This document shows, in pieces, positions 10,918 to 32,819 of a DNA stretch of 64,000 nucleotides. The stretch is from Betaproteobacteria bacterium. Its GTDB lineage: Bacteria > Pseudomonadota > Gammaproteobacteria > Burkholderiales > CAIKXV01. Under the pieces are notes generated by a model. It worked only from the letters and a program-made list of their open reading frames with translations, had not been told where the DNA came from and made no database searches. The first letter of the stretch is position 1. Every line of letters starts with the position of its first letter. Both the position numbers and the translations under genes were made by a program. The stretch is from NCBI GenBank assembly GCA_947458265.1, contig CANGYF010000009.1, forward strand, positions 66,544 to 130,543. Reading direction: 5' to 3'.

Positions 10918-10946
10918 ATTAGACGAGGCGCATGTCCAAAAAGCAA
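10918..10946 (-). promoter_or_regulatory. Candidate sigma70-type promoter for the pyrK-like operon (TTGCTT-N17-TCTAAT on the minus strand)
   Basis: Hexamers read on the minus strand: -35 at 10946-10941 and -10 at 10923-10918, with 17-nt spacing. The predicted start would place the 58-nt hairpin at the 5' end of the mRNA. Confidence 0.35.
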
Positions 10947-10983
10947 GGCTTTTCCAAAAAAAGAGACGGTTCGTGACGCCCGG

Positions 10984-11865: not shown

Positions 11866-12158
11866 CGAGCAGAGCACTGTTGCAGGTCGCGCCGATGGTA
11901 CTCGATTGCATGCGCCGCTCCGGCAGCCTGATCGCGCATCCGCCGGTGCCGGTGAAGACGGTGAAGGTACGGGTCGCCCATGCCAGGGACAACCCGGGGC
12001 GGCCTGGTCATCGCGCTCCCCGGGAGGTGTCGAACCGGTGTCTAATTTCTGATACCGTTCTCACAAAGCAAACAGATCGATCCAGGCGTAGCACTGCGCC
12101 GCCGGGCTCGGCACGGCGCTATCCTCGGCGCTGCACCGCCACGAACGTCACGGGAGAG

Positions 12159-13598: not shown

Positions 13599-13608
13599 CG
13601 GTCGAACG

Positions 13609-14856: not shown

Positions 14857-14898
14857 GCGTACGTTGGGTGCCATGACAGGCTCGCCCGCAGACTACCG

Positions 14899-15348: not shown

Positions 15349-15357
15349 GCCCTGCGC

Positions 15358-16383
15358 TCACCGCCTGGCGCGCGCCAGGTCGTACCAGGTCGGGTCGTAG
15401 TACTTCGACGGTGGCCCCATCTTCTTCTGCGGCACGCCATAGCGCTCGCGCAGCATGATCACGTTGCGAAGGCCCTGCAGATCCATCTCGCCGTTGCGCT
15501 GGAGCGCGGACTGTCCCCGGGTCATGCCTTCGACGGCACCGCGCGCGGCCGCTTCGTCCACCTTGACCCGCGCAGCGAGGATGCGCACCGCTTCGTCCCG
15601 GTTCGCAGGATCGTAGATCCAGTCGATCGCCGAACGCAGCGCGCGGATGTAGCCGACCACCGCCTTCGGATTCTCGTTCGCCCAGGCACGGTTGACGATG
15701 CGCACGTTGGCCTGGTAGCCACCCAGCGCGGACACGCCCTCGCCCAGCAGCGTGAACCCTTCCTGCCGGGCCACGCCGGTGAACGGCTCCGTGATCAGCG
15801 CCGCCGCGAACTTGCCGTCGCGCAGTGACTGCAGCCGGGCGCGCGAGTTGCCCACCGCGACGAAGCGCACGTCATCCGGACCGAGGCCGCCTTTCTCGAG
15901 CAGGTAGCGCAGCACGAACGCATATCCGGTGGTCAGCGAGTCGAGCGCCAGGTCGCGGCCCTTGAGGTCGGCGATCGAGCGCACGCCGGGGACCGCGAAC
16001 ATCGACAGTTCGGCCGAAGAGATGCCCATGATGGCCACCATGTCCGGCTCGCGATCGAGCTTCGCCGTGCCCTGCCCTTCCTGGTAGGCGATCAGGTTGT
16101 CGATGGCGGTGCTGGCGATCTGGAACTTGCCGGACACCAGGCTGCTGATCTGGAAACCGGAGTTGGGCGTCGCCGTGAGGTTCACCGCCAGCCCCTCGCG
16201 CGCGAAGAAGCCCTTGTCCTGGGCCACGTACGACGGCATCGCGTTGGCACCCGCGAAGACGATTGCCTCGATCGGTTGCAACGGCGCCGCCGCCCTCGCC
16301 AGGCTGGCCGGGAATGGCGCCAGTCCCGGCAACAGACCGAGGGCCAGGCTGAACATCCTTCTGCGTCGAATCGGTTCGATCAT
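15358..16383 (-). CDS. ABC-transporter substrate-binding protein, NMT1/THI5-SsuA/TauA-like (orphan)
   Basis: 341 aa with an RRRRMF twin-arginine-like signal. Overall similarity to nitrate/sulfonate/bicarbonate-family binding proteins. No permease or ATPase gene nearby. Confidence 0.7.
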   Translation of the reverse strand: MIEPIRRRRMFSLALGLLPGLAPFPASLARAAAPLQPIEAIVFAGANAMPSYVAQDKGFFAREGLAVNLTATPNSGFQISSLVSGKFQIASTAIDNLIAYQEGQGTAKLDREPDMVAIMGISSAELSMFAVPGVRSIADLKGRDLALDSLTTGYAFVLRYLLEKGGLGPDDVRFVAVGNSRARLQSLRDGKFAAALITEPFTGVARQEGFTLLGEGVSALGGYQANVRIVNRAWANENPKAVVGYIRALRSAIDWIYDPANRDEAVRILAARVKVDEAAARGAVEGMTRGQSALQRNGEMDLQGLRNVIMLRERYGVPQKKMGPPSKYYDPTWYDLARARR

Positions 16384-16418
16384 CGTTCCTCCATCTGGCG
16401 CTGCTGCGCCCTCTCCAC

Positions 16419-17441
16419 TCAGCGGTCGACACGCACCCCGGCAGCCTTGATCACGCGGCCCCAGCGAACGATCTCGTCCTTGATGAACGCGCTGAACTGC
16501 TCCGGCGTCGACGATCGGGCCTCGCCGCCAGCGGCAGTGATCCGTTCACGGACCTCCGGCGACTCGACCGCGGCGATCGTTTCCTTGCTGAGCCTCGCCA
16601 CCACGGCCTTCGGCAGGCCGGCGGGCCCGCCGATGCCGGCCCAGCTGGTGGAGCGGAAACCCTTGTAGCCCGACTCTTCCATCGTCGGCACGTCGGGCAG
16701 TTGCGGCGAACGCTTCTCGCTGCCTACCGCCAGCGCCTGGATGCGCCCGCCCTTGATGTGTCCGAGGCTGGCCGGCATGTTCACGAACATGAAGTCGAGT
16801 CGGCCGCCCAGCATGTCGGCGATCGCCGGACCACTGCCGTTGAACGGCACATGGGTCGGATCGATCTTCGCCACGCTCTTGAACAGCTCGAGGGTCAGGT
16901 GCGGCGTGGAGCCGATGCCGGTCGATGCGGCATTGGTCGCGCCCGGCTTCGAGCGCACCGTCGCCACCAGTTCGGCGACGGTCTTCGCGCCCTTGCTGCC
17001 GGTGACCAGCACATTGGGCGTGGTGCCGATCATGCCGATCGGGATGAAATCGCGATCGGTATCGAAAGGCAGCTTCACCCCCAGGTTCAGGTTCAGCGAG
17101 AACCCGGTGGACAGCGTGACCAGGGTGTGGCCATCCGGCACCGCCTTGGCGGCGATGCTGTAGGCCAGCGCTCCGGCCGCTCCGGGCCGGTTGTCCATCA
17201 CCATCGGCTGGCCGAGCGCCTCGCTCATCTTCGGCGCCACCGCCCGCACCAACTGGTCGGACAGGCCGCCGGCGGAGAAGTCGACGATCATCCGGATCGG
17301 CCGGCTCGGATAACCGTCGCCACTGCGTGGCTGGGCCTGCGCGATCGCCTGGGGTGCAACGACCGCCAGCGCGGCCACCAATGGCAGGCCCGCCGCGGTC
17401 CAGGACCGCCTGCCATGCTTTGCTGCGCGGGTCGGTTGCAT
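16419..17441 (-). CDS. Bug-family (TctC-like) substrate-binding protein
   Basis: 340 aa with a signal peptide, then YPSRPIRMIVDFSAGGLSDQLVR...DNRPGAAG, the Bug/TctC signature. Confidence 0.88.
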   Translation of the reverse strand: MQPTRAAKHGRRSWTAAGLPLVAALAVVAPQAIAQAQPRSGDGYPSRPIRMIVDFSAGGLSDQLVRAVAPKMSEALGQPMVMDNRPGAAGALAYSIAAKAVPDGHTLVTLSTGFSLNLNLGVKLPFDTDRDFIPIGMIGTTPNVLVTGSKGAKTVAELVATVRSKPGATNAASTGIGSTPHLTLELFKSVAKIDPTHVPFNGSGPAIADMLGGRLDFMFVNMPASLGHIKGGRIQALAVGSEKRSPQLPDVPTMEESGYKGFRSTSWAGIGGPAGLPKAVVARLSKETIAAVESPEVRERITAAGGEARSSTPEQFSAFIKDEIVRWGRVIKAAGVRVDR

Positions 17442-17458
17442 TGCGCTGTCCTCCGGGA

Positions 17459-17962
17459 TCAGAACGGAATATCGTCCTCGAAATCGTCGAAACCCGGGCC
17501 GCCGCCCTTGGCGGCTGCCGGCGCCGGCTTGCCGCGGGCTGCGCCGCCGCCGGACGAGCGCGGCGAATCGCCATCGCCCATCGAATCGCCGCCACCCATG
17601 CGGTCAGCGCCGGGTGCGCCGGCACCGCCGCGGCTGCCCAGCAGTTGCATGCTGTCGGCGACGATCTCGGTCGTGTAGCGCTCGATGTTCTCCTTGTCGG
17701 TCCACTTGCGGGTGCGCAGGCGGCCCTCGACGTAGACCGGCGAACCCTTCTTCAGGTATTCGCCCGCAATCTCGGCCAGCCGGTTGCGCAGCGTGACCCG
17801 ATGCCACTCGGTCTCTTCCTTCTTGTCGCCGGACGCCTTGTCCTTCCACGAATAAGTCGTGGCCAGGTTCAGGTTGCACAGCGCATTGCCGTCGGGCATG
17901 TAGCGCACTTCAGGGTCGCGACCGAGGTTGCCGACCAGGATGACCTTGTTCACAGATGCCAT
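17459..17962 (-). CDS. ssb: Single-stranded DNA-binding protein
   Basis: [36 protein letters not shown]... OB-fold domain, a Gly-rich linker and the acidic tail DDFEDDIPF. Confidence 0.97.
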
Positions 17963-17996
17963 TCGATACCTCCGCTACGGGCGTGGTGCTTGGTAC

Positions 17997-19250
17997 TCAA
18001 GCCTTGGATGGATGGGCGTTCCCGGTGTCGCCTGCCGCCGGCGCATCGCCGGGCCGGCCCGGTGAGCGCATGTCGGCCGCGATGGCCAGCCAGGCCACCG
18101 TCAGCAGCACGCAGAACCAGAGCACGGCGGCCAGACCGGCAGTCTGCGCAAGGATGCCGCCGACCGCGCCGCCGAGAAAGATCCCGAGAAACTGGATACT
18201 GCTGTATACCCCGATCGCAGTGCCGCGCAAGTGGCGCGGCGCGAGTCGAGAGACGAGGGAGGGCAGCAGCGCCTCCAGCACGTTGAATGCGATGAAGAAA
18301 GCCGCCAGCGCGGCGCCGGTGCCGACGACCGAATCGAGGGTCAGCAGGAAGGCACCGAACGCACCCAGCGTCAGCACGATGCAGGCCAGGAACACCTGCT
18401 TCAGGCGGTGCCGGCCCTCGGCATAGCCGATCGCCGGCACCAGGACCGCAAAGCTCGCGAGCATCGCCGGCCAGTAGACATGCCAGTGGTCGGCCACCGG
18501 CATCCCGGCGTCGCGCAGGGACACCGGCACCACCAGGAACAGCGCGGTCAGCAGCGCATGCAGCACAAGCACGCCGAAGTTCAGGCGGCGCAGCTCCGGT
18601 TCGGCCAGCACCGCGGCCAGATCGGCACGGAAGCGGCCGCGCACCGGCCGCCGGTCGCCGTCGCCCGCTGCCGCCCGGCCTTCCCCCGGTGCTGGCGGTT
18701 CCGGCACCAGCCAGCGCACCACGCCGATGGCAAGCAGGGCCAGCACGCCGGTCATCGCGAAGATGCCGCCCACGCCGATCGCGGCGTTGAGCGGCGGGCC
18801 CGAGATCAGCGACACCGCGAACGCGATGCCGATGGTGGAGCCGATGATCGCCATGGCCTTCGAGCGCTGGCTGTCGCGGGTGAGGTCGGCGGTGAGGGCG
18901 ATCACCACCGCCGAGATCGCGCCAGCGCCCTGCAGCATTCGCCCGAGGATCACTATCCAGATGTCGCTGGCCGAGGCGGCGACGAAACTGCCCAGCGCGA
19001 ACAGCGCCAGGCCGAAGTAGATGACCGTCTTGCGTCCGAAGCGGTCGGAGGCCCAGCCGAACGGAACCTGCAGCAGGGCCTGGGTCAGCCCGTAGATGCC
19101 GATCGCAATGCCGATCAGGAAACGGTTGTCGCCGCCGGACAGGCGGTCCGCGTACACGGCGAACACCGGCAGGATGATGAACAGCCCGAGCATGCGCAGC
19201 CCGTAGAGGGCGGACAGCGCGAGGCTTGCGCGCCATTCGAGGGCGTTCAT
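17997..19250 (-). CDS. MFS transporter
   Basis: 417 aa with about 12 hydrophobic helices. [13 protein letters not shown] is the MFS loop 2-3 motif. It sits in the uvrA-MFS-ssb arrangement common in Burkholderiales. Confidence 0.85.
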
Positions 19251-22317: not shown

Positions 22318-24723
22318 TCAGCGTCGCGCGTAGTCGAGGAACTTCTCCGGCGTCACCCGGATCGCCGCGCCGGTGGGGCAGGCGCGCACGCAGGCCGGCC
22401 CGCCGCGCAGGTCGGTGCACATGTCGCACTTCACCGCATGCTTGGCCCCATCCTTCGCCGCAGCCAGCGTCTCGCACCCTGGCTCGTCGGTCAGGCCGGT
22501 GAGCAGCCAGGAAAGCAGGCTCGGCCGGCGCCGCTTCTCCACCACCGGCACCAGCTGGATCACGCCGTACGGGCAGTTCTTCTCGCAGTTGCCGCAACCG
22601 ATGCAGGTGTCGAGGATCGTTACCTCGCCTTCGGGGCTGCGCTGGATCGCGTCCGGCGGGCAGTCCTTCATGCAGTGCGGGTTCTCGCAATGGCGGCAGG
22701 ACGTGGGCACGTGAATGCTGGCGAAGGTGGGCCCGGCCTCGCGGTCGAGCCGCGAATTGCCGTCGTGGGTATCCGCGCAGGCCTTCTCGCAGTTGTCGCA
22801 GCGGATGCACAGGCTCTCGTCGATCAGCAGCACGTCGGTGGCCTCGCCGACCCCCTGCTTCATCAGGAAGCTGATCAGGTTGCCCGGGTCCGGCTCGCTC
22901 TCGCGCGCTGCATTGGCGGCGATGCGCTCGAGCACGCGCGCCTCGACGCTCCCACGCAGCGTGTTGTTGCGCATCAGCACTTCGTTGAACGTGCGCGCAT
23001 CCAAGACGATGCTCTCGGTGGACACCGCCGCGCGCACGGTCGCCGATCGCGGCGCGTCGGACAGCAGCGCCATCTCGCCCACGTAGTTCCCGGCAGCGAC
23101 ATACGACAGCACCACCTCGCGCCCGCCCAGGGTGCGCGACACCGTCACCGAGCCGCGGCGGATCAGGTGCAGCCCATCGGCCTTGTCGCCTTCGTGGAAC
23201 AGCACCTCGCCGGCATTGAACACGCTGATGCGCGCATTGGCCACCATCTCGTCGAGGTCGGCCGCGCTGATCCACGGGGCGATATTCGCGCGCACCGCGC
23301 GCTTGAGGAACACCTCGTCGACGCGCCGGCGCACCGACTCCACGCTGCCGATCAGCTTGAGCATCGTGCGCCGCGGCGTCTCGAGCAGCACGCAACCCGG
23401 GCCCGCACGCACCGTGCTCGCGCGCCGGCGGCCCGACACCAGCCCCATCTCGCCGAAGAACTCGCCGGTACGCAGGCGCACGTCGCTGCGCTTGCCTTCC
23501 TTGTCCAGCACCTCGATCAGCACCTCGCCTGCGACGATGACGAAGAACGAATTGGAGTAGTCGCCCTTGGCGAACACCACCGCGCCGGCGGCAGGCTGCT
23601 GCATCTCGCTCTCCAGCAGCACCTCGCGCAGTTGCAGCGTGGACAGCCCGGAGAACACCGGCACGGTGCGCTGGATGCGCGCGAGCGCTCCGGCAACATC
23701 CGTCGCCGCGTGCCAGCCCGCCAGGCGTCGCTTGAGCAGCGGCTCGTCGGCGGGTTCCACCGGAAAGCCCAGGATCGACTCGACCACCTCGTAGCCCTGG
23801 TTCATCGCCTGCTTGATCAGCGGGTAGCCCCCCAGGGCACCGACGATATACAGGCCGGGCACGTTGGACTCGTAGGTCGGAGACAGTTCGGGCACCGCGT
23901 TCGGGTCGTCGTTCGGAAAGGTGACGCCGAAGCTTTCGACGAGGCGGCGCGGAGGCGTTGCGCCCAGCCGGGCGATCACCCGGTCGCAATCGATGCTGTC
24001 CGAGCCGTCGCGCGTCTGCACCCGTACGCGCAGCGCACCGGCATCCACCGCCTCGACCGCCTCGGGCCGGGTGCTGAAGCGACACTCGATCACGCCGTCG
24101 CGGATCGCGCTGGTGACCAGGTCTAGGTTGCCCTGCTTGCAACGCGTGAACTCCTCGTTGCGGTTTAGCAGTACCACCCGGTTGCCATTGGCCAGTGCCA
24201 GCGCGTTCTCGATCGCCGCATCACCGGCGCCGACCACCACGATGGTCTCGCCGACATGGGCGCCGGGATCGTCGAGCTGGTACTGCACGCGCTCGAGGTC
24301 CTCGCCTGGCACGCCCAGCCGCCGCAGGTTGCCCTGCAGGCCGATTGCCAGCACCACATGCTCGGCGTGCACCGGCTCCTGGCCCTCGATGCCGAGCACG
24401 AACGCGCCGCGGCTGCCGGTGATCGAGACCACGGTGGCGCGATGGCGCACCACGACCCCAAGCGTCGCCACCTGCTCATCCCAGGTCTGCAGGATGCGCT
24501 CGCGCTTCCCGGCAGCGAACGACAGGTCGCTGCGCAACGGCAGGATGGCCGGCTCGGCCATCACGTGCTTGCCTTTCTGGTAGCGGAAGATGGTGTGCGA
24601 GAGATGCGACTCGGATTCGAGCAGCACGTGCGACACCCCGCGGTGCGCGGCGCGCGCAGCGCACGACAGGCCGCCCGGGCCAGAGCCGACGACGGCGATC
24701 TTCACCGACACGGGGGGGCTCAC
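22318..24723 (-). CDS. Cytoplasmic fusion protein: FAD/NAD(P)H pyridine-nucleotide-disulfide-type oxidoreductase, two cyclic-nucleotide-binding domains and an NrfC/DmsB-like four-cluster [4Fe-4S] ferredoxin
   Basis: KIAVVGSGPGG and TIVVVGAGDAA are dinucleotide folds. FGEMGLVSGRRRASTVRA and VGEMALLSDAPRSATVRA are cNMP motifs. There are four Cys groups: CIRCDNCEKAC, CRHCENPHCMKDCP, CIGCGNCEKNCP and CDMCTDLRGGPACVRACP. GTG start at 24723 in a GTGA overlap with the upstream stop (alternative GTG at 24711). No signal peptide. Confidence 0.8.
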   Translation of the reverse strand: MSPPVSVKIAVVGSGPGGLSCAARAAHRGVSHVLLESESHLSHTIFRYQKGKHVMAEPAILPLRSDLSFAAGKRERILQTWDEQVATLGVVVRHRATVVSITGSRGAFVLGIEGQEPVHAEHVVLAIGLQGNLRRLGVPGEDLERVQYQLDDPGAHVGETIVVVGAGDAAIENALALANGNRVVLLNRNEEFTRCKQGNLDLVTSAIRDGVIECRFSTRPEAVEAVDAGALRVRVQTRDGSDSIDCDRVIARLGATPPRRLVESFGVTFPNDDPNAVPELSPTYESNVPGLYIVGALGGYPLIKQAMNQGYEVVESILGFPVEPADEPLLKRRLAGWHAATDVAGALARIQRTVPVFSGLSTLQLREVLLESEMQQPAAGAVVFAKGDYSNSFFVIVAGEVLIEVLDKEGKRSDVRLRTGEFFGEMGLVSGRRRASTVRAGPGCVLLETPRRTMLKLIGSVESVRRRVDEVFLKRAVRANIAPWISAADLDEMVANARISVFNAGEVLFHEGDKADGLHLIRRGSVTVSRTLGGREVVLSYVAAGNYVGEMALLSDAPRSATVRAAVSTESIVLDARTFNEVLMRNNTLRGSVEARVLERIAANAARESEPDPGNLISFLMKQGVGEATDVLLIDESLCIRCDNCEKACADTHDGNSRLDREAGPTFASIHVPTSCRHCENPHCMKDCPPDAIQRSPEGEVTILDTCIGCGNCEKNCPYGVIQLVPVVEKRRRPSLLSWLLTGLTDEPGCETLAAAKDGAKHAVKCDMCTDLRGGPACVRACPTGAAIRVTPEKFLDYARR

Positions 24724-26210
24724 TTCGCGCCCCCACGGCGCGCCGCCTGCAGCGTCGCCGCGAACTCGCGCAGCCCGGCCTGGAACGCGACAGGCTGGTA
24801 CTTCTCGTCGTCGGCCACCAGCGCGAGCAGCCGCCTGAGCCCGGGCCCGAGCTGGTCCGGCGCCACCGCCTTCTGCCGCGCAAGGAAGTCGCCAAGACTC
24901 TGCAGCGCGAACACCGCCTGTTCGGCACCGGCGTAGTCGGTGTACTGGCTGGCCAGCCCGTCGGCCACCAGGGCCTCCATCATCGCCTGCAGATCGGCGG
25001 CCGCGAAACGGTGGGCAGCGATGCGCGGCAACAGGCCGTCGATCGCCTCGTACACGGCACGCGCCTGCGCGATCGGGTCGCCGGCGCCGGCGATCGCCTG
25101 GTGCAGGCGGTCGATCTGCTTCGCCAGCGCGGCCCCGGCGTCGGCATCGACGCGACGCGCCACCAGCCGCAGCATCAGCAGGTTCGAGTCGTTCAGTCGC
25201 ACGATCCCGGGGCCGGCCTTGAGCCGGGCCGCGAGGTAGCGGTTGCCGCGCATCGACTGGTGGCACGCATGGCAGTCGAACAGCACCAGTTCCGGGAACA
25301 ACCCGTCGCGACCGCGCTGCGGGTGCAGGAAGATCGCCAGCTGCTCCTGCGAGGCCACCGCCTGGCCGATCGCCCAGGCACGCACGCCGTCCCACGTACC
25401 CTTGCGCTCGCGCCAGTCGGCGTCGATGCGGAAATGCGCCGGTCCGAGCAGGGTGAACGTGTCGAGCTCGAAGCTCATCCTCGGATGCCCGGCCGCCATG
25501 ATCCTGTGGGTGACCAGCTTCTGCGCGTTGCCGAAGTGACAGGACACGCACAGGCGTGCGCGGTCGATGTCGTTGCTGGTCGGGTACAGCCCGTGGGCGA
25601 TGTTGTCGCGGTGGCTCGCGCCGCTCTCGACGTGGCGCCGCAGCCAGCGCTCGGCCGGCCCGTGGCAGGACTCGCAGGTCACGCCCTCGGTGATCGAGAA
25701 CTCCGGTGCGCGGCGCGCCGCCGGCGCGTTGTGCGCGTGGCAGTCCAGGCATACCGCAGCGCGGTGCGCAGGTTCAGTCAGACCCATCCGCTTGACGATC
25801 GCCTGCGACTTGTCGCTGAGCAGCGTGCGATAGGCGCGCGCGTGGCGGTCGCTGCGCTGCCAGACATGGAACTCGGTCTGCAGCACGTTCGAGCCGGGCC
25901 ACGCCTCCGCCGAGCCGTGACACAGGCTGTTCGCGCAACTGGCCACGCCGAGCGTGCGCTCGGCCGCGTACTGGGGGAGCCCGCGGGCCGGGGCGGCGAC
26001 GCCCGGGACGGCTGCCACTGCACGGCCTGGCCCTGGCAGGCCACCCCACAGCGCACCCGCCACGATGCAGCCAACGATAGCCGCGGCGAACGCCAGGGCG
26101 AGCGCTCGGCTGCGGCGCGCGCCGGCAGGCAGCGCCTGTGCGCCGGGCTGTGCCGTGGTAGACGATGGTACGGGGACGGATCGACGCAATATGCGCACGG
26201 GGAACCTCAT
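24720..26210 (-). CDS. Multihaem c-type cytochrome (4 CxxCH plus 1 Cx4CH) with an N-terminal anchor/signal and a helical C-terminal domain
   Basis: Start at 26210 in an ATGA overlap with the upstream stop. Haem motifs: CANSLCH (Cx4CH), CLDCH, CESCH, CVSCH, CHACH. The N-terminal part looks cytochrome c554-like. Confidence 0.8.
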   Translation of the reverse strand: MRFPVRILRRSVPVPSSTTAQPGAQALPAGARRSRALALAFAAAIVGCIVAGALWGGLPGPGRAVAAVPGVAAPARGLPQYAAERTLGVASCANSLCHGSAEAWPGSNVLQTEFHVWQRSDRHARAYRTLLSDKSQAIVKRMGLTEPAHRAAVCLDCHAHNAPAARRAPEFSITEGVTCESCHGPAERWLRRHVESGASHRDNIAHGLYPTSNDIDRARLCVSCHFGNAQKLVTHRIMAAGHPRMSFELDTFTLLGPAHFRIDADWRERKGTWDGVRAWAIGQAVASQEQLAIFLHPQRGRDGLFPELVLFDCHACHQSMRGNRYLAARLKAGPGIVRLNDSNLLMLRLVARRVDADAGAALAKQIDRLHQAIAGAGDPIAQARAVYEAIDGLLPRIAAHRFAAADLQAMMEALVADGLASQYTDYAGAEQAVFALQSLGDFLARQKAVAPDQLGPGLRRLLALVADDEKYQPVAFQAGLREFAATLQAARRGGAK

Positions 26211-29200
26211 CGCCGGAACAGCGTGCGATCGACCTGGTCGCGCACGCGCCACGGATCGCCTTCAGGGCGCAGGTAGAGCCGTCGCTGCTCGGCCAGGTCG
26301 AGCGGGCGCGAGCCGATTCGGCCGAACACCGCCACCTGCCCGCCAGTCTCGTCGACCGCGCGGTCGCGCTCCAGCCCGCGCGACAGGGCAAGCGCAGGAC
26401 TGCGCGTGGGCCGCCAGGCAATCAGCTGCGGCCTGGGCTCCGGGCTGAAGCCGTAGAACTTCGGCTGCGTGTCCGGTGCAGTGAGCTGCACCACCTTCAG
26501 CCCGTTACGCCCGTCCGCGACGTATGCGAACAGCGACGCGTTGGTCGAGCCGACCACCACGTCGCGGGCGTCGTTCAACACACCGCCGGCAGTGAAGCGC
26601 TGGACCACCCGCGGCTGCTCCGGATTCTCGACGTCTACGATCACCAGCCCCTCGCGCCCGGCCGCGACATAGGCGTAGGTGCGCGCGACATACACGCGGT
26701 TGGCCTCTGCCATCGGCACGGTGGCGCCCTCGACGCGCCGCGGGCGCTTCACATCGGTGACATCGAGCACAACCAGCCCATCGCGCGCGGCGACGAACAG
26801 GTAGCGAAACTGCAGCGTCGCCGCGCGTGCGCCTTCGACCGGCACCACGGTGACCAGTTGCGGCTTGAGCGGGTCGTCGAGGTCGACCACCGCGATGCCG
26901 CGCTCGACGGCGACGTAGGCGTAGTGGCCGCCCATCGTGATATGCCGCGCGCCGCGCAGCGCACCGCCCGCGTCCCAGGTAAGTGCCCGGCGCAGGAAGT
27001 TGTTGCGCGGCTCGCCGTCCTGCAGCGTGTCCACGTTGACCACGATCAGGCCCTCGCGCGCATCGGAGATGAACGCGTAGTGGTAGATCGGGTGGAACGG
27101 CTGTTCCTGGTTGACCCGGCGCATCAGGTCGCCCTGGTTCTTGAACGGGGCCACCGGCTGGTTGGTGGGCAGCGCGACGCAGGTCGCCTCCGCCGAGCGC
27201 ACCCGCGTGTCCTGCCCGAGCGGCGAGAACGGCGCGCTGACGATGCGCTGCGAGAAGCCCTTGTTCGCGATCGAGGCGACGTCGTACACCACCATGCCGC
27301 CCGGGCCCTCGGCCGCGTAGAGGTATTCGCCACGCATTTGCAGGCACTCCACCCGGCCGCGGGTGCGCTGGTCGTGCGCCTCGCGCAGGCGCCTGCCTCG
27401 ATTGTCGTGCGCGGCGAACCAGTCCGGGTACGCGTAGCGGTGCAGGTAGCTGCCGATCACCGCCTGCGGCTCCTCCCACTCGGTGACCTGCACCGCCTCG
27501 ACATGGCGCTCGCTGCCGACCCACGCGTTGAAGCCGACGAAGTTCACGAAGCCAGTGCCGTGCAGCAGCAGCTGCGCCATGATGGCGTTGTTGTCGTTGG
27601 CGGCCGACAGGTGGCAATCGGTGCAGGTCTTGGTCTCGGTCTTGCGCTCGGTGTGCGCATAGTGCGGCGCGAACGCCTGGCTGGAGAAGCCGGCGGAGGA
27701 AACGGGCGGCTGCTGGATGTAGATGCGCTCGCGGTTGCTGTTGGTCGAGGACAGCAGCAGCGCCGAGCTGGAGCGGATCGGCACGATCTTGCCCTGCTTG
27801 ACCGGGCCGTGGCGGCCGAGCTGGAACACGTCGTCGCGCACCACCTGCGGGTTATAGGTGGCGTAGTTGCGCGTCGCACCACCCTCGTAGTGGAGGCGAT
27901 CGGTCTTCCAGTTCGCCTCGATCGGCAGGTGGCAGCCCGAGCAACTCGTCGTCCACGAGGTGTGGCAGGTCTGGCAGGCCATCTTGTCGTCGCCGTGCGC
28001 ACGCTCCTGCGCGGGCACGCCCGGCCCCCAGGACTGGCGATAGCTGTCGAAAGCGCCGCGCGCGGTGAGCTTGGACCGCGCCGCCTTCTCGTTGTAATTC
28101 CGGTGCCCGGGGGTGACGGTATCGCGCACCAGCGACATCTCCCACTCCAGCCCGGGGGTGAGGGTGGAGCGCTGGTAGAGCCGGCCGCCACGCCACTCGA
28201 AGCGCGCCCGCCCGTCGGGCACGCGCATCAGCGAGAGGTTGTTGCCGCCCGGGCGCGCCGCCGGGCCCGAGGTGAACAGCGTCGGGTAGCGGTCTGCGGT
28301 GCCGTGGCAGTCGGCGCACTCGATCTCGATCGCCGCCGCGACCTCGCCATAAATGTGGCCGTTGCCGTGGGCGTCCTGGGAGAAGTGGCAGTCCACGCAG
28401 TGCATGCCCACGTCGAGATGGATCGAGGACATGTGTACCGACTTGCTGAACTTCTTGGGGTCGTCGTCGGCGACGATGCGCCCGTCCTTGTCGAGCAGGT
28501 TGCCCCTGCGGTCGCGCTTGAAGACCGCGCGGAAGTTCCAGCCGTGGCCGTGGTAGTCGGCGAACTGGGTGTCCTTCAGCTTCGGGTTGAGGTCCCACAC
28601 CCGCTTCAGGAACTCGAGCGAGCCCCAGTTGCCGAGTACCGCCGCGCCCTCCGGGTTGCGGTCAAGGATGCGGCGGCGTTCGGTGTGCGACGGGTGGCGC
28701 TGCTTCTCGGGCCACATGAACGGCGCATCGGCCTCGTAGTCCCACATCGTGTAGCCGAAGAAACTGTTCACGAACACGTTCGGCTGGTGCATGTGGCACA
28801 CCATGCACTGCGAGGACGGAATCGCGCGGGTGAACTCATGCCGCAGCGGGTGGCCGCTGCGGTCGCGCGGGATCGTCGGATCGGCGCTTACGCTGGTGCC
28901 CGAGTGGCCGTGCTGTGCGTAGGGCCCGGAATGGCGCGGCTCGCGGTCGTTCGCGTAAACGACGTGGCAGCTCGCGCAGCCGGAGGAGCGGTAATCGCCC
29001 GGCTGGTCGTTGCTGCCGAGGAACCAGGTGAACGGGTCGTTCAACCGCGTCTTGGTGATGTTGATCAACGGCACCGCGATGCGCTGGCCGGTACCCGGGC
29101 CGCGCACCGACTGGCGGATATCCGGCCGCCCCGGCTCGTCCAATGTCTGCAGCCGGCCGAGCACGTTGGGCAGTCCGATCTCCGGGAACAGGCTCTGGAT

Positions 29201-29998
29201 CACCCGGCCGCCGCGCTCGAACACCCGGAACACGTCGCCCGGGGGCATCGTCTCCCAGGCCGGCAGCGGAAACAGCTGCGCGAGCACGCCCTTGGCGAGG
29301 AGGAAGGCATCGGGCTTGACCGGGTTGACAATGGTCGCGCCGATGCCGTCGCGGGTATAGGCCTCGCCGAACAAGCCGCGCTTGAACGCGAACTCCGGCG
29401 GCAGGACGCCGTTGTTGTAGGCCGCACCATTCCACAGCATCGCGCCAGTGGCCATCAGGCTGCGCTCGGCCGCCTGGATGATCGGCAGGTGGCAGGCACC
29501 GCAGGCTTCGCGCGCGACCCGGTAGTCCGACGGATTGGTGAAGCGGATGAACTCGGGGCTCTCGCGGTTGAGCAGGGTGTAGCTGCGCTCGGGCGTGGCC
29601 GAGGACGGGTAGTTCCACTCGTTCGCAAAGCGCGGCATCACGTGAGCGCGATCGAGCGCTGCACGGTAGTCGCGCATCCGGTCACCCCGGTAGTCCGAAC
29701 CTGTCGGCCGCTGCACCATCGCATCCCCGCCGTGGCAGTCGGTGCAGCCAAGAGCCACCGCCGGATTGCGATGCATGGTCGCATGGTCGGTGGCGGTGTG
29801 GCAGGACACGCAGCCGGCGGACTTGGAATACGCCTCGGCATGGGACTGCTTCGCCGGCGCGGGCGGCGCGCCGGTGAACATGATGTCCGGAGGGCTCACC
29901 GTCGGACGCGCGGTGAGGCTGCCCGCAGCCTGCGAGGCGGTCACGCCGCCGGCCAGGGCCACCGCGATGCCGACCCACAGCAGCGCCAGGGCAGCCAT
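26207..29998 (-). CDS. Decahaem c-type cytochrome fused to a C-terminal LVIVD-repeat (beta-propeller-like) domain, ~1263 aa, secreted
   Basis: Start MAALALLWVGIAVALAGGVTASQAAG (signal) at 29998. Ten CxxCH motifs: CVSCH, CTDCH, CGACH, CASCH, CMVCH, CVDCH, CADCH, CQTCH, CSGCH, CTDCH. Six LVIVD-like repeats: GMVVYDV, GLIVVNV, GIAVVDL, GLVVLDV, GLVIVDV, GLKVVQL. Confidence 0.85.
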   Translation of the reverse strand: MAALALLWVGIAVALAGGVTASQAAGSLTARPTVSPPDIMFTGAPPAPAKQSHAEAYSKSAGCVSCHTATDHATMHRNPAVALGCTDCHGGDAMVQRPTGSDYRGDRMRDYRAALDRAHVMPRFANEWNYPSSATPERSYTLLNRESPEFIRFTNPSDYRVAREACGACHLPIIQAAERSLMATGAMLWNGAAYNNGVLPPEFAFKRGLFGEAYTRDGIGATIVNPVKPDAFLLAKGVLAQLFPLPAWETMPPGDVFRVFERGGRVIQSLFPEIGLPNVLGRLQTLDEPGRPDIRQSVRGPGTGQRIAVPLINITKTRLNDPFTWFLGSNDQPGDYRSSGCASCHVVYANDREPRHSGPYAQHGHSGTSVSADPTIPRDRSGHPLRHEFTRAIPSSQCMVCHMHQPNVFVNSFFGYTMWDYEADAPFMWPEKQRHPSHTERRRILDRNPEGAAVLGNWGSLEFLKRVWDLNPKLKDTQFADYHGHGWNFRAVFKRDRRGNLLDKDGRIVADDDPKKFSKSVHMSSIHLDVGMHCVDCHFSQDAHGNGHIYGEVAAAIEIECADCHGTADRYPTLFTSGPAARPGGNNLSLMRVPDGRARFEWRGGRLYQRSTLTPGLEWEMSLVRDTVTPGHRNYNEKAARSKLTARGAFDSYRQSWGPGVPAQERAHGDDKMACQTCHTSWTTSCSGCHLPIEANWKTDRLHYEGGATRNYATYNPQVVRDDVFQLGRHGPVKQGKIVPIRSSSALLLSSTNSNRERIYIQQPPVSSAGFSSQAFAPHYAHTERKTETKTCTDCHLSAANDNNAIMAQLLLHGTGFVNFVGFNAWVGSERHVEAVQVTEWEEPQAVIGSYLHRYAYPDWFAAHDNRGRRLREAHDQRTRGRVECLQMRGEYLYAAEGPGGMVVYDVASIANKGFSQRIVSAPFSPLGQDTRVRSAEATCVALPTNQPVAPFKNQGDLMRRVNQEQPFHPIYHYAFISDAREGLIVVNVDTLQDGEPRNNFLRRALTWDAGGALRGARHITMGGHYAYVAVERGIAVVDLDDPLKPQLVTVVPVEGARAATLQFRYLFVAARDGLVVLDVTDVKRPRRVEGATVPMAEANRVYVARTYAYVAAGREGLVIVDVENPEQPRVVQRFTAGGVLNDARDVVVGSTNASLFAYVADGRNGLKVVQLTAPDTQPKFYGFSPEPRPQLIAWRPTRSPALALSRGLERDRAVDETGGQVAVFGRIGSRPLDLAEQRRLYLRPEGDPWRVRDQVDRTLFRR

Positions 29999-30077: not shown

Positions 30078-32819
30078 TCAATAGGTGAGGATAAGGTTGG
30101 CGATGGCCGAGTACTGCCGGCTGTCGAGCGCATTGCCGTAGAGCTCGCGCAGGCCAGCCCCAGGGAACAGAACCGCGAGCGAGACGTTGATCACCACGTT
30201 CTGGATGAACAGCGGCCGGTACTGCACCGCCACCGATGCATCGTGGCCGATCATATTCGAATGCAGGCGCTGGTTACGCAGCGTCGCCAGCGACGACAGG
30301 TTGTCGAAAGCGAGCCGGTTGAGGTTGCCGATCAGCCGCACCTGCGGCGTGAGGTCCACGTCGGCACCGATGCCGATCAGGCGCAGCCCGGGGTTGGTGA
30401 AGTTCGCCTGGCCGTGCTCGCGCGAGGTGCGCAACGAAGCAAGCAGGCCGTTGCGCATCGACAGCGTGGTACCGCCCCCGCCCACCAGCGGCACCGCCTG
30501 GCGGATCCAGTAGCTGGTATCGGCGCCGGCGAACAGCGGGTTCTCCAGCACCGCGTCGAAGCCCTGCGCCTTCGCATCGAAAGGGTTGCGGTCGCCGGAG
30601 GCGTAGAGCGCGCTGGTGCGCAGCCGGATCCAGGAGAAGTCGCGCGAGACTTCGGCCGCGCCGAACCGTGCTTCGACCCGCTCGGGCTGGCCTGAGAGCT
30701 GGCCGCGGCTCACGTTACCGCTCGCCAGGTAGCCCGACAGGGACAGGTTCCAGCGGTTGTAGTGGCCGTCAGCGTTGAGGCCCAGCCAGGTAACGTCGTA
30801 GTCGTAGGGCCGACCCGAGCCGAACACCGCCGGCCGCTCGAGGAAGCCGTTGCCGTTGAAGAAGCGCGGGTTCGATCCCTCGCGGTTGCTGTTGCGCAGG
30901 ATGGTCCCCTGGGTGGTCACCCCAAGCACCGGGAAGTCCTGCCGGTAAAGATTGAACACGAACACGTCATCGTCGCGGGGGCGCTGCAGGATGTCGTTCA
31001 ACCCGCTGTTGGTGTCTTTCTCGAAGCGGCGGAACCACGCGAGGTTGTACTGGTACTGGTTATTGTCGCGGGTGCCGAACAGGCGAACCCCGAACGGCTG
31101 GTCGACGAACAGGAAACCGCGGAAATCGGAGGTGAACGGCTGCACGCCGACGCGCAGGCTGTCGAAGTCGTAGCGCTCGGACACGTCGCGCAGGTGCTTG
31201 TCGAAGAACAACTCCTGGAAGCCGACAAAGCCGTCGTTGCGGTTCGGACCGCTCACCGGGTCGATGTTGGTCAGCCGCACCTCTTCGGTCATCGTGCGGT
31301 TGAAGTTGACCACCGGCACGATCCGGTACTCGTAGTCGGGCGGCCGGAACACGGTGTTGCCCTTGATCAGGCCAAAGTTGAGGATGAGGGTCTGCGCGAA
31401 GGTCGCCTGGCGGCCGTTGCCAAACGAGCCCAGCGCACCGGGGCGCAGGGCGGACTGCGACCCGACCGGCACAGGCAGGCTGCGCGACTCGTAGAGCGAG
31501 TCCGAGATCGCGCTCACGTTGACGAACCACTCTGGCCCGAGCAGGTCCTCGAACACCGGCAGGTCGCCGCGCAGAGGGTTCGGGTTGTACGGATCCCATC
31601 GGTTGTACGGCAGCACGCCCAGTGCCTGCACGATGCGCCAGCGATCACGCACCGGGATCGAATCGCGCGGCGCCGACGGCGCGGGGCGGGCAGCCTGCGT
31701 CGGGTCGATCAGTGCGCGCCGCGGTTCGAGCGCACCGGCACCACCAGTCGGGCGACGCCGCTCGAGCGCGAGCGCCACTGGCGGGAGGTCTGGGCCACCC
31801 TGCGCCGGCGCGACACCGGGGCGCAGTGCCTCAGCCAGCCCGGCGGCGGACGCCGCGTCCGGGGCGGCTGGCTCGAGCGGCCCTCCGAGGTCGACCGGCT
31901 CCAGCGCCTGCCCGCTGCGCCGGCGGTCCACCGCCAGAACGTCCGCAGCGCCCTCGCGCCGCTGCCGTACCCAGGCCTGGTCGCCGTTGGCCCGCTGCAC
32001 GCGATACCAGTCGCCGAGGCGGCGGTCAGCCACCAGCAGCACGCCGATCTCCACCTGCGCCACGACCTCGGCGTCATCGGCCGCACGCGCCTGAAGTGCG
32101 AGCAGCGGCACCATCACCTGCAGCAGGAACGGCGCATCCTCGGGCGCTGGCAACGGTGCCGCCGGCACCGGGGCCGCTGCCGCGGCCACCGCCGAGGTCA
32201 CCCCCAGCGCGCGCGCATCCACCCAGCCGCGGCTGCGCGTCGCCGCCTTGCCTTGGCGCTCGACCTGCACCCAACTGCCTTCGCGCTGCGACGCCTGCAG
32301 CGGCTCGCCCACGACCAACCGGTCCAGTACACGGAAGCGCTCGCCGGCACCGGCGCGCAGGAGCGCCGGCTGCATCGCCTGCACCTCGACAGCCACCGCG
32401 CCAGGCAGCTCCGGGGGCAGCGCGACCAGCGCCGCCTCGCCGGTAGCGGGCGGGCCCGCCGCCGGAGCCTTTGCCCGGAGGCTACCGGGCGCAGGCCCTG
32501 AAGGCGTGGCTGCCACCCGCAAGCCGTCGGCAAACACCCAGCCCTGGGTGGCGCGACCGTCCTGCAGCCGTACCTGTGCCCAGCGGCCCTGCCGCTGCAT
32601 CACCACCGCCGGCACACCAGGCGCCCAGCCCGCGGTCTCGGGAGCGTCCTCCGAAGGTCGCTCGCGCAGCGGGGTCGGGCGCTCCACCCGCACCCGCTCG
32701 CTGGTGCCAGCCGGCGGCTGCGGCTGCGGCTGCGTCCAGGCTGGCGGCGCAACGAGCACCGCCCCGGCCAACGCAGCCGCAGCGGCAAGGCGCACGTGCT
32801 CAGAGGCCGTCGCAGACAT
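30078..32819 (-). CDS. Outer-membrane protein: signal peptide, three SH3b-like repeats and a ~560-aa predicted beta-barrel
   Basis: Start MSATASEHVRLAAAAALAGAVLV at 32819 (alternative GTG at 32795). The SH3b-like segments end in GWVFADGLRV, GWVDARALGV and AWVRQRREG. The C-terminal half has alternating amphipathic segments and ends ...AIANLILTY (terminal aromatic residue). Confidence 0.6.
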   Translation of the reverse strand: MSATASEHVRLAAAAALAGAVLVAPPAWTQPQPQPPAGTSERVRVERPTPLRERPSEDAPETAGWAPGVPAVVMQRQGRWAQVRLQDGRATQGWVFADGLRVAATPSGPAPGSLRAKAPAAGPPATGEAALVALPPELPGAVAVEVQAMQPALLRAGAGERFRVLDRLVVGEPLQASQREGSWVQVERQGKAATRSRGWVDARALGVTSAVAAAAAPVPAAPLPAPEDAPFLLQVMVPLLALQARAADDAEVVAQVEIGVLLVADRRLGDWYRVQRANGDQAWVRQRREGAADVLAVDRRRSGQALEPVDLGGPLEPAAPDAASAAGLAEALRPGVAPAQGGPDLPPVALALERRRPTGGAGALEPRRALIDPTQAARPAPSAPRDSIPVRDRWRIVQALGVLPYNRWDPYNPNPLRGDLPVFEDLLGPEWFVNVSAISDSLYESRSLPVPVGSQSALRPGALGSFGNGRQATFAQTLILNFGLIKGNTVFRPPDYEYRIVPVVNFNRTMTEEVRLTNIDPVSGPNRNDGFVGFQELFFDKHLRDVSERYDFDSLRVGVQPFTSDFRGFLFVDQPFGVRLFGTRDNNQYQYNLAWFRRFEKDTNSGLNDILQRPRDDDVFVFNLYRQDFPVLGVTTQGTILRNSNREGSNPRFFNGNGFLERPAVFGSGRPYDYDVTWLGLNADGHYNRWNLSLSGYLASGNVSRGQLSGQPERVEARFGAAEVSRDFSWIRLRTSALYASGDRNPFDAKAQGFDAVLENPLFAGADTSYWIRQAVPLVGGGGTTLSMRNGLLASLRTSREHGQANFTNPGLRLIGIGADVDLTPQVRLIGNLNRLAFDNLSSLATLRNQRLHSNMIGHDASVAVQYRPLFIQNVVINVSLAVLFPGAGLRELYGNALDSRQYSAIANLILTY

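Follow-up and report, generated by a model that had tools for sequence, protein, structure and literature searches.

On the minus strand of the 64,000-nucleotide stretch of betaproteobacterial DNA analysed here (the window), a gene at positions 22318–24723 encodes an 801-aa protein that we name FCF, for flavo-cNMP-FeS protein; the name is coined for this report. We propose, with a probability a little above one-half (about 0.55), that a single operon of seven genes encodes a transmembrane electron-transfer system with FCF as its cytoplasmic entry module; the system would move electrons outward and be switched by cyclic nucleotides (cNMPs). FCF is probably the NAD(P)H-oxidizing, cyclic-nucleotide-sensing end of this widespread operon, which seems to conduct electrons through the inner membrane to large multihaem cytochromes. 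Pfam located flavin, two cNMP-binding and ferredoxin domains in the protein, in agreement with the four-part architecture described in an earlier note on this DNA, and the residues for cofactors and ligands are conserved in all of these domains.

The open reading frame fills exactly 22318–24723 of the minus strand, from a GTG start to a TGA stop at 22318–22320; translation of the plus-strand frame over the same interval gave nonsense. The earlier note had the right coordinates and left the strand unstated. FCF is cytoplasmic: a search of its sequence for a signal peptide or hydrophobic segment found neither, which agrees with the lack of a Tat or Sec signal remarked on before. A frameshift or fusion artefact joining two polypeptides was ruled out, since P0001, an 801-aa protein from elsewhere, is 99% identical to FCF and the whole architecture recurs in over 150 full-length homologues of 760–900 aa; FCF is therefore a genuine single polypeptide, as first read. 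Its AlphaFold2 (AF2) model is confident (mean pLDDT 87.3, pTM 0.80), with defined inter-domain packing.

The N-terminal FAD/NAD(P)H domain (aa 1–340; 23704–24723, minus strand) has the TrxR/YpdA/FNR fold without a redox-active Cys (Pfam Pyr_redox_2, 2.6e-26, aa 8–310). Both Rossmann signatures reported previously are present, GSGPGG at aa 14–19 and GAGDAA at aa 164–169, giving the two-dinucleotide-binding fold with its FAD GxGxxG and NADPH GxGxxA motifs; homologues as distant as 30% identity all keep the FAD GxGxxG and the NAD(P)H GxGD..E motif. The nearest structures were Bdr, TrxR-type FNR and TrxR, with Bdr (7a7b, TM 0.81) the top Foldseek match and TrxR matched at E~1e-20. This kinship of structure and sequence to Bdr/YpdA and TrxR, and the name 'thioredoxin reductase' given to members in some databases, could suggest that FCF is a thioredoxin or bacillithiol-disulfide reductase merely fused to regulatory and FeS domains. 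We put the chance of this close to nil, as the reading is refuted at the level of catalytic residues. No Cys pair equivalent to the CxxC (CATC) of the TrxR NADPH domain occurs in aa 1–340; Cys14 of Bdr aligns with Gly16 of FCF, at a position that is Ala, Ser or Gly in homologues; Cys21 varies; and among 37 homologues there is no invariant Cys before C638. Scores against the family models were likewise far under their cut-offs (TIGR01292, low-Mr thioredoxin reductase, 52.7 bits versus 343.45; TIGR04018, YpdA/Bdr bacillithiol-disulfide reductase, 124.7 versus 339.9). The earlier description as 'TrxR-like' therefore stands for the fold but fails for disulfide reductase chemistry, and an NAD(P)H:FeS flavoprotein would be expected to have no catalytic Cys of this kind.

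Between the flavin and FeS domains lie tandem cNMP-binding domains (aa ~355–600; 22924–23661, minus strand), a PKA-R/PKG-like A/B pair. PF00027 (cNMP_binding) matched two stretches at 1.9e-38, scoring 130.7 bits against a gathering threshold of 27.5, and the pair aligns with the tandem domains of PKA-R and PKG. Like the CNB-A/B tandem of the PKA regulatory subunit and PKG, FCF has two consecutive cNMP domains, each with a canonical phosphate-binding cassette; the two cassettes picked out before are indeed there (FGEMGLVSGRRRASTVRA, aa 422–439, and VGEMALLSDAPRSATVRA, aa 547–564). They are also intact, with Gly-Glu for the ribose 2'-OH and Arg-[ST] for the phosphate in both, kept in 144–157 of 157 homologues (CNB1: G423 in 157, E424 in 156, R433 in 144; CNB2: G548 in 154, E549 in 144, R558 in 147); for the cassette Gly, Glu, Arg and Thr of both domains the range is 127–157 of 157. 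The beta6-helix-beta7 elements of the AF2 model (aa 411–439 and 534–564) had pLDDT values around 90. These features suggest that a cNMP would be the ligand of FCF and would act as its gate. CRP-superfamily domains at times bind other ligands, and no cyclase gene was conserved in the cluster among 83 loci. A precedent for direct allosteric control by cAMP in a bacterial CNB–enzyme fusion is the mycobacterial cAMP-regulated Pat acetyltransferase, and an NCBIfam Pat match was obtained for FCF. Unlike in PKA/PKG and Pat, the module under control in FCF would be a redox chain; we know of no characterized case of such control by cNMP domains, and none was found in the literature searched.

The C-terminal region (aa ~625–801; 22321–22851, minus strand) is a four-cluster [4Fe-4S] ferredoxin domain of the HycB/HydN/AegA type (Pfam Fer4_7, 2.5e-11; Fer4_11, 1.2e-9). 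Its 16 Cys, between C638 and C781, fall into the four groups noticed previously (C638/641/644/648, C675/678/683/687, C706/709/712/716 and C765/768/777/781) and fit the CxxCxxCxxxC, CxxCx4CxxxCP, CxxCxxCxxxCP and CxxCxnCxxxCP patterns of the PF13247 superfamily (HycB/HydN/DmsB/NrfC). All 16 are invariant in 37 homologues, down to 30% identity. The best solved relatives of aa 631–793 were HycB3/4 (7qv7) and HycB (7z0s), and NCBIfam matched AegA, HydN, ArrB and DmsB, each under its own cut-off. The label 'NrfC/DmsB-like' given earlier is thus correct at superfamily level, but the nearest kin are instead of the cytoplasmic HycB/HydN/AegA type: the NrfC and DmsB models scored 42.9 versus 377.6 and 49.3 versus 214.1, and FCF, with its ferredoxin domain internal/C-terminal, does not have the Tat signal of NrfC and DmsB proper. 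AegA/YgfT and HydN/HycB, which matched aa 630–796 best in NCBIfam and the PDB, resemble FCF in wiring a pyridine-nucleotide flavoprotein to a partner through a cytoplasmic 16-Cys ferredoxin. They have no cNMP domains, and FCF scores far under the equivalog cut-offs; AegA/YgfT is a ferredoxin fused to a GltD-like NADPH flavoprotein, whereas FCF has the reverse domain order and a TrxR-type fold.

The fusion had been called unusual, in the sense of rare, and here the frequency of the architecture says otherwise: at least 591 species genomes encode a full-length homologue, and the family forms ~50 clusters at 50% identity. Searches returned 6092 matches for the FCF fusion, single-domain matches included, and 5141 for the membrane protein described below. 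Hosts include Burkholderiales, Lysobacterales, Alphaproteobacteria, Nitrospira and Vicinamibacteria, most being heterotrophic members of the first three groups, and the homologues carry only generic names in databases. Lithoautotrophs are represented by Nitrospira here, with a similar gene triad in Ferrigenium. A keyword search of the literature for a flavin–cNMP–FeS fusion found nothing.

FCF lies in the same co-directional seven-gene cluster in ~77 of 81 informative loci. The c5 cytochrome gene is directly upstream (35 loci) and/or the gene for the membrane protein TM308 directly downstream (43 loci) in 74 of 85 loci, three further loci have cluster genes nearby, and ~4 adequately flanked loci are without them; across 83 loci no other same-strand gene (cyclase, kinase or porin) was conserved beyond the seven. 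Gene order follows two circular permutations, with FCF first in half of the family, which points to selection on co-expression and not inheritance of one arrangement. A Nitrospira-type contig whose FCF is 40% identical keeps the full cluster, a minimal triad of FCF, TM and multihaem cytochrome (MHC) genes was found at 33% identity, and a flavin-less CNB-CNB-FeS variant still has TM and MHC genes. The minimal conserved core is an FeS protein, a b-type membrane protein and a multihaem cytochrome. The flavin-less variant adjoins HD-GYP/GAF-HD genes.

In the window the remaining six genes are all on the minus strand, and the multihaem c cytochromes among them bear 25 haem motifs in total. Next to FCF is c5 (24720–26210), a c554-like cytochrome with four CxxCH motifs, one CX4CH and a signal/anchor helix. 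LVIVD10 (26207–29998; ~1263 aa) is a secreted decahaem cytochrome with ten CxxCH motifs, a signal-like helix and a C-terminal LVIVD beta-propeller (Pfam LVIVD, 2.3e-20), and has homologues in 53 loci at 59–78% identity. It is followed by SH3 (30078–32819; ~913 aa; 51 loci), an exported protein with two bacterial SH3 domains, and by Hbp (32800–34695; 53 loci), a 631-aa lipoprotein with an LLAGC lipobox and HbpS/GlcG-like domains (HbpS-like, 3.3e-22, three stretches; weak likeness to EfgA/GlcG structures). FHA10 (34692–36428; 578 aa; 59 loci) joins a cytoplasmic FHA-like domain (FHA and Yop-YscD_cpl matches) through one TM helix (aa 135–153) to a periplasmic decahaem cytochrome c with cytochrome c3/c7 domains and ten CxxCH motifs. 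Searches of solved structures for LVIVD10, c5 and Hbp returned nothing, or weak c554 or GlcG matches.

Three 4-nt start/stop overlaps occur within the operon: the FCF start (GTG, 24723–24721) shares GTGA with the c5 stop (TGA, 24722–24720), the c5 ATG overlaps the stop upstream of it as ATGA, and the Hbp ATG overlaps the FHA10 stop, again as ATGA. To take the GTGA as a sign of stoichiometric co-translation was an over-reading: it shows that the genes belong to one operon, with FCF–c5 translational coupling possible. Half of the family has FCF as the leading gene and not behind the cytochrome. No terminator or promoter consensus was seen at the 3' end. The cluster adjoins type II secretion system (T2SS) genes at 37413–48517 (minus-strand gspG to gspN, plus-strand gspD, E and F), which also flank it in three other loci (L004, L086 and L088) and not in a fourth (L087). 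The neighbouring T2SS is a possible export route for a surface cytochrome, an association that we regard as tentative.

The seventh gene (36435–37289) encodes TM308, a five-helix membrane protein of 284 aa and a candidate di-haem cytochrome b, which has His-x13-His twice and a ~110-aa cytoplasmic helical insert. H114/H128 and H286/H300 (numbered on the 308-aa long ORF), each pair enclosing 13 residues, are invariant, lie in predicted TM helices and are kept even in the most distant homologues. Ni_hydr_CYTB (PF01292) was matched by 21 of 23 orthologues at E<=1, one of them above the gathering score (P0353, 33.0 bits versus 30.1; P0404, 29.4; P0305, 28.7), and orthologues also matched DUF4405 and Ferric_reduct. 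The window's own copy had no Pfam match. Its AF2 model (pLDDT 73, with the His-bearing helix below 50) found PDB structures by Foldseek only at E>=1, and a profile search of PDB sequences gave no match. It is therefore from the motif and a weak profile match that we infer haem b in TM308, a candidate divergent cytochrome b561-type di-haem protein that would also make contact with FCF. The conserved cluster upholds the functional link to the cytochromes that the earlier note had drawn in suggesting electron transfer between them and the NAD(P)H pool; the membrane component had been missed. Its place between a cytoplasmic FeS domain and periplasmic cytochromes makes such transfer physically possible.

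On the proposed path, NAD(P)H would be oxidized at the TrxR-fold flavin domain and its electrons would pass through the four [4Fe-4S] clusters of the HycB-type domain, which may dock on the cytoplasmic face of the co-conserved TM308. The two His-x13-His pairs could hold two stacked b haems across the membrane, and electrons emerging at the outer face would reach the membrane-anchored FHA10, then c5 and LVIVD10, which may be secreted by the neighbouring T2SS, and finally some periplasmic or extracellular acceptor. The PKA-R-like domains would most likely serve as an allosteric switch, with binding of cAMP or cGMP setting the geometry of the contact between the flavin and the first cluster or between the FeS domain and the membrane; an electron leak that dissipates pmf and NAD(P)H would then open only on a second-messenger signal. 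We infer NAD(P)H as the donor, and an outward direction because both the membrane potential and the fall in redox energy that starts at NAD(P)H favour it.

The quinone-independent logic of outward export proposed here is found in Fre-MsrQ-MsrP and NOX/ferric-reductase (FRD) systems, in which electrons from an NAD(P)H flavoprotein in the cytoplasm enter a bis-His di-haem b membrane protein that delivers them to the outer face. FCF differs in inserting a four-cluster ferredoxin wire and two cNMP domains between flavin and membrane; TM308 would be of the cytochrome b561/Ni_hydr_CYTB type with a cytoplasmic insert, whereas MsrQ/NOX are of the FRD/YedZ type; and the acceptors would be multihaem c cytochromes in place of a molybdoenzyme or O2.

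Proteins of the Ni_hydr_CYTB type usually carry a quinone site and are typically quinone-reactive. Electrons may therefore pass between the system and the quinone pool and not bypass it. FCF and TM308 could then form a regulated NAD(P)H:quinone oxidoreductase, and/or TM308 could be a CbcL-like quinol:cytochrome c oxidoreductase, the cytochromes being fed from the pool and FCF just tuning or priming it. The matches of TM308 orthologues to the cytochrome b561/HydC/FdnI family fit this, as does the single, NapC/CymA-like anchor helix of FHA10. In Geobacter CbcL itself, a di-haem b of the HydC/FdnI type is joined to a nonahaem cytochrome c. We nevertheless judge a quinone-coupled system unlikely, as the triad of FeS protein, TM protein and MHC stays together even in minimal clusters, which a continuous wire fits better than two independent quinone reactions. 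CbcL and FdnGHI/HybABC would share with the FCF system a Ni_hydr_CYTB-family di-haem b, for which TM308 is the candidate, together with a multihaem c and/or a four-cluster ferredoxin (FdnH/HybA-like). In Fdn and Hyb, however, the FeS subunit is Tat-exported to the periplasm and quinone is reduced by the b subunit, whereas FCF has its FeS domain in the cytoplasm, on one chain with an NAD(P)H flavoprotein; compared with CbcL, the candidate b protein and the c cytochromes are separate in the FCF cluster.

Electrons could also flow inward, from a donor such as Fe(II) in the periplasm or outside the cell through the multihaem cytochromes to TM308 and quinone, or on to FCF, which would then be the cytoplasmic acceptor or an NAD(P)+ reductase. 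The quinone reactivity of Ni_hydr_CYTB relatives and the complete cluster in the Nitrospira-type contig would suit this direction, and iron oxidizers supply the literature on FHA cytochromes, which in our search came to two reports. FHA10 matches 'NHC' of Ferrigenium straubiae, part of a triad with an FHA single-anchor multihaem cytochrome, a motif-less five-helix membrane protein and a cytosolic [4Fe-4S] protein (bioRxiv 10.64898/2026.01.22.701106). Its authors propose that the FHA-nonahaem cytochrome joins Fe(II) oxidases to the quinone pool, with inward flow favoured, and report the triad as of unknown function, the His pairs and b561 kinship going unrecognized (bioRxiv 10.64898/2026.01.22.701106). 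A 'forkhead-associated' decahaem cluster (403) is also present in 27 iron-oxidizer genomes of the Gallionellaceae (PMC10734462). The Ferrigenium genes are apparently the same triad as FHA10, TM308 and FCF, with the [4Fe-4S] protein as the putative counterpart of the last; this 2026 preprint, the only report found to note the triad, mentions neither a flavin nor a cNMP domain and does not describe HbpS, SH3 or LVIVD genes. A literature search for LVIVD with multihaem proteins gave only an unrelated Tenderiales paper. Inward flow seems to us decidedly unlikely: the membrane potential would oppose it, the step from c-type haems to NAD(P)+ runs steeply uphill and no pmf-coupling subunit is encoded in the cluster, hosts are mostly heterotrophs, and donor modules are usually built by fusing an NAD(P)H-type flavoprotein to FeS clusters.

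FCF might instead be mainly a sensor, not a bulk carrier, reading the redox state of the cytochrome chain or of NAD(P)H, with the cNMP domains bringing in second-messenger signals, so that the complex could be regulated in its assembly or activity. Two regulatory domains in FCF, an FHA-like docking domain in its partner FHA10 and the HD-GYP/GAF-HD neighbours of the flavin-less variant lend this some appeal. It has only a slim chance in our estimation, as Pfam found no output domain in FCF (HTH, kinase or GGDEF), and its HycB-type four-cluster wire and complete NAD(P)H/FAD site, both invariant throughout, are built as in an electron-transfer enzyme.

A bolder form of the outward, cNMP-switched proposal, which we advance tentatively and at less than even odds, is a so far unrecognized and very widespread class of quinone-independent, second-messenger-gated electron export, which would start from NAD(P)H and reach the cell surface by way of FAD, four FeS clusters, two b haems and ~25 c haems; the T2SS would help to export the surface cytochrome. 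If this is true, ordinary aerobic soil and sediment Proteobacteria, Nitrospira and Acidobacteriota would gain a switchable extracellular reductase, acting on Fe(III), Mn(IV) or humics or deliberately producing superoxide. Direct action of cAMP or cGMP on a respiratory-type electron wire would then be seen for the first time. If the main proposal holds, cyclic nucleotides would steer electron flow directly and post-translationally, beyond CRP-type transcription. Many aerobes not thought of as 'electroactive' would hold an outward multihaem conduit that bypasses the quinone pool, with a bearing on the cycling of iron and manganese, on ROS made outside the cell and on redox balance, and many 'hypothetical protein' and 'cyclic nucleotide-binding protein' annotations would acquire a function. 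Cultured hosts of the family include Pseudomarimonas arenosa, Oceanibacterium hippocampi and Simiduia agarivorans (M5M_18110).

The segment at 22318-24723 holds a minus-strand ORF of 801 residues, here termed FCF (flavo-cNMP-FeS protein); a plus-strand reading was rejected because its translation is meaningless. Its GTG start (24723-24721) and the TGA stop of the preceding gene share bases in the sequence GTGA. The motifs quoted in an earlier note were all found in the translation, and Pfam returned three domain types, namely Pyr_redox_2 (aa 8-310, 2.6e-26), two copies of cNMP_binding (1.9e-38) and a multi-cluster 4Fe-4S region (aa ~630-790), so that the four-part fusion described there was confirmed in its ORF, motifs, domains and position. 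No hydrophobic segment or signal peptide was found along the full protein. The fusion is a single polypeptide and not, as the earlier note had allowed, two proteins joined by a sequencing frameshift, since the same full architecture recurs in another protein of 801 aa, with 99% identity, and in more than 150 homologues 760-900 aa long. An AlphaFold model built from the alignment was rated confident (mean pLDDT 87.3, pTM 0.80) and, as expected, has a beta6-helix-beta7 cassette in each CNB domain.

The fusion had been thought unusual, a view that did not survive a survey of its frequency. A protein database search with FCF gave 6092 matches; among the best 120 of these were many proteins of ~800 aa with 64-73% identity, whose only names are 'cyclic nucleotide-binding domain-containing protein' or strings of COG names. 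With one genome taken per GTDB species, relatives were present in at least 591 species, and about 50 representatives of 50%-identity clusters span the full FCF length, down to ~32% identity; FCF thus belongs to a large, uncharacterised family and is no oddity of one genome. The 80 loci retained from the survey, nearly all full-length matches at 56-70% identity, come from Burkholderiales, Usitatibacter, Lysobacterales, Alphaproteobacteria, Woeseiaceae and Vicinamibacteria, with Pseudomarimonas arenosa and Oceanibacterium hippocampi as cultured hosts. Remoter members, with similarly generic names, occur in Nitrospira and Simiduia agarivorans (M5M_18110), and shortened variants exist that have flavin and CNB domains without FeS, or CNB and FeS domains without flavin. 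No publication about the fusion was found in the literature. Two pairs of FCF and its upstream cytochrome gene stand in convergent orientation on one Burkholderiales contig (locus L016, 10001-12418 and 18391-22152), each FCF copy ~62% identical to that in the window, which indicates paralogous clusters within one genome.

Conservation was assessed in an alignment of 37 FCF sequences reaching down to 30% identity. The FAD motif (G12, G14, P15, G17), the NAD(P)H motif (G166, D167, E171) and all 16 cysteines of the four FeS motifs are invariant, and none of the cysteines in the flavin domain is; Cys21 is Ala in most homologues. The nearest folds to the flavin domain are Bdr/YpdA (TM 0.81), TrxR-type ferredoxin-NADP reductases and TrxRs, but it scores far under the cut-offs of these families, lacks the TrxR-type CxxC and has Gly16 at the position of the catalytic Cys14 of Bdr. 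The TrxR-like assignment of the earlier note therefore stands for the fold but not for the catalytic cysteines: by its sequence this is a TrxR-fold NAD(P)H flavoprotein, and a disulfide reductase reading is refuted at residue level. The cNMP-domain pair aligns with the tandem CNB-A/B of PKA regulatory subunits and PKG, and both phosphate-binding cassettes are intact, with Gly-Glu and Arg-Ser/Thr kept in 144-157 of 157 homologues. Such domains could also make FCF purely a sensor; this is unlikely, as the protein has no output domain. Its C-terminal domain most resembles the cytoplasmic HycB/HydN/AegA-type four-cluster ferredoxins.

FCF is the last of seven co-directional minus-strand genes running from 37289 to 22318. 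It is preceded, in order of transcription, by TM308, a five-helix membrane protein (36435-37289); FHA10, an FHA-anchored decahaem cytochrome (34692-36428); Hbp, an HbpS-like lipoprotein (32800-34695); SH3, an exported SH3-domain protein (30078-32819); LVIVD10, a decahaem LVIVD-propeller cytochrome (26207-29998); and c5, a c554-like cytochrome (24720-26210). Start and stop codons overlap by 4 nt at FHA10/Hbp (ATGA, 34692-34695), LVIVD10/c5 (ATGA, 26207-26210) and c5/FCF (GTGA, 24720-24723). The long ORFs of Hbp, SH3, LVIVD10, c5 and TM308 are over-extended at the 5' end, and the true starts are likely at 34695, 32819, 29998, 26210 and 37289, respectively.

By tblastn with the window proteins, the same gene set was found almost everywhere in 80 related loci, its order occurring as two circular permutations: TM308-FHA10-Hbp-SH3-LVIVD10-c5-FCF in Burkholderiales, and FCF-TM308-FHA10-Hbp-SH3-LVIVD10 in Lysobacterales and Alphaproteobacteria. 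FCF has c5 immediately upstream and/or TM308 immediately downstream in 74 of 85 loci and cluster genes in the vicinity in a further 3, and only ~4 loci with adequate flanks lack them; the putative functional tie to neighbouring cytochromes suggested in the earlier note is largely borne out by this context. No additional conserved same-strand gene, be it a cyclase, kinase or porin, was found in the related loci. Some loci with the FCF-first order, including that of O. hippocampi, have an extra gene between FHA10 and Hbp (15044-15979 in locus L064) that encodes ~311 aa with a biotin-lipoyl/HlyD-like barrel-sandwich domain.

The entire cluster is retained on a Nitrospira-type contig where FCF identity is down to 40%, and a Simiduia-like contig (33% identity) retains only FCF, the TM protein and one multihaem cytochrome. 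Behind a flavin-less CNB-CNB-FeS protein, too, come a TM308 homologue and a multihaem cytochrome. The conserved core thus has three members: FeS protein, TM308 and multihaem cytochrome. The flavin-less variant, 446 aa with two CNB domains and a four-cluster FeS domain, is accompanied by a TM308 homologue of its own and a small multihaem cytochrome (locus L084, 2172-8398). Immediately before it are two genes for HD-GYP-like phosphodiesterases, one of response-regulator-HD_5 and one of GAF-HD type, which hint at a second-messenger connection.

TM308 is the candidate b-type membrane link. Across 40 orthologues, H114/H128 and H286/H300 (numbered on the 308-aa long ORF) are invariant, each pair 14 positions apart within one predicted transmembrane helix, and they are still present in the remotest homologues. 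Bis-His pairs arranged in this way are the classical ligands of two stacked b haems. The window protein has no Pfam match; 21 of 23 orthologues have weak matches to Ni_hydr_CYTB (prokaryotic cytochrome b561), one of them over the curated threshold (33.0 versus 30.1 bits), with DUF4405 matched in 7 and Ferric_reduct in 2 of the 23, and a precomputed PF01292 match is present in ~40% of the database homologues among those listed. The AF2 model is poor at the His helix (pLDDT <50; 73 overall), and neither Foldseek with this model nor a PDB profile search found structural relatives. A helical insert of ~110 aa between TM4 and TM5 (aa ~150-250 of 284) is modelled at pLDDT 86-97, and the juxtamembrane motif YPxLMTxN contains an invariant Thr. 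By the positive-inside rule, the N-terminus and insert would be cytoplasmic, which would place one putative haem near each membrane face; FCF or the FHA domain might dock on this insert.

FHA10 is predicted to have an FHA-like domain in the cytoplasm, a single TM helix and, on the periplasmic side, ten haems. The FHA domain (aa 1-95, 36144-36428) keeps Gly-Arg, His-Ala and (Asn)-Gly, and has a conserved Leu for the canonical phosphothreonine-binding Ser of SxxH. FHA10 and its orthologues also match the YscD cytoplasmic-domain family, which suggests a docking module and not a phosphopeptide reader. In c5, four CxxCH motifs are accompanied by CANSLCH (CX4CH) near the N-terminus, and no haem motif or domain match was found in the C-terminal ~180 aa. 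A complete-looking type II secretion cluster adjoins the operon (37413-48517; gspG to gspN on the minus and gspD, gspE and gspF on the plus strand), and such genes, in differing orientations, also lie beside the cluster in loci L004, L086 and L088, but not L087. This system may export LVIVD10. LVIVD propellers are typical of surface proteins and, together with the adjoining secretion genes, hint at an extracellular site for the terminal acceptor.

From domain content, residue conservation and synteny we infer a path in which NAD(P)H would reduce the FAD of FCF, electrons would pass through its four [4Fe-4S] clusters to the cytoplasmic-side haem of TM308, cross the membrane via the two putative b haems and enter FHA10, c5 and LVIVD10. 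Electrons moving outwards have both redox span and membrane potential in their favour, but the flow would be at the expense of NAD(P)H and pmf. That expense would be a reason to have a switch, and the evident candidate for one is the tandem pair of cNMP-binding domains, set between the flavin module and the FeS module.

A 'forkhead-associated' decahaem is recorded for 27 Gallionellaceae genomes in a pangenome study of 2023 (PMC10734462), and a triad of FHA-nonahaem, five-TM protein and cytosolic [4Fe-4S] protein in Ferrigenium straubiae was called novel, of unknown function and expressed under all conditions in a 2026 preprint, the putative b-type nature of the five-TM protein going unrecognised (bioRxiv 10.64898/2026.01.22.701106). 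The Ferrigenium authors proposed inward uptake for the FHA cytochrome, with which the presence of the cluster in lithotrophs agrees; such flow, towards quinone or NAD(P)+, nevertheless seems to us decidedly unlikely here, given that NAD(P)+ reduction would be energetically unfavourable and that the hosts are mostly heterotrophs.

The nearest functional analogues of the outward path are Fre-MsrQ and NOX/ferric-reductase, in which an NAD(P)H flavoprotein passes electrons through a di-haem b protein to the outside. Its parts resemble HycB/AegA ferredoxins, cytochrome b561/HydC and CbcL-type b-plus-multihaem-c pairs, and TM308 might act like CbcL or HydC in a quinone-coupled version, which we consider rather unlikely. 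None of these systems brings together a flavoprotein of TrxR fold, CNB domains and a four-cluster wire in the cytoplasm. The cNMP-binding insertion in this putative transmembrane redox module has no known precedent, and the system is both widespread and unannotated.

Elsewhere in the window, uvrA is convergent with FCF, and 1-19250 and 48600-64000 together hold two TctC/Bug-family receptors, UbiD, an SLT_2 family (MltB-like) lytic transglycosylase and an MFS transporter, with a xanthine-dehydrogenase/CODH-type molybdoenzyme set at 3444-7175. The Bug receptors and best homologues point to a Burkholderiales-type betaproteobacterium. GC content peaks at 75-76% across the gsp genes (38-42 kb), and a series of small minus-strand ORFs beyond 49 kb (GC ~63% versus ~70%) is by its appearance a putative ribosomal-protein operon.
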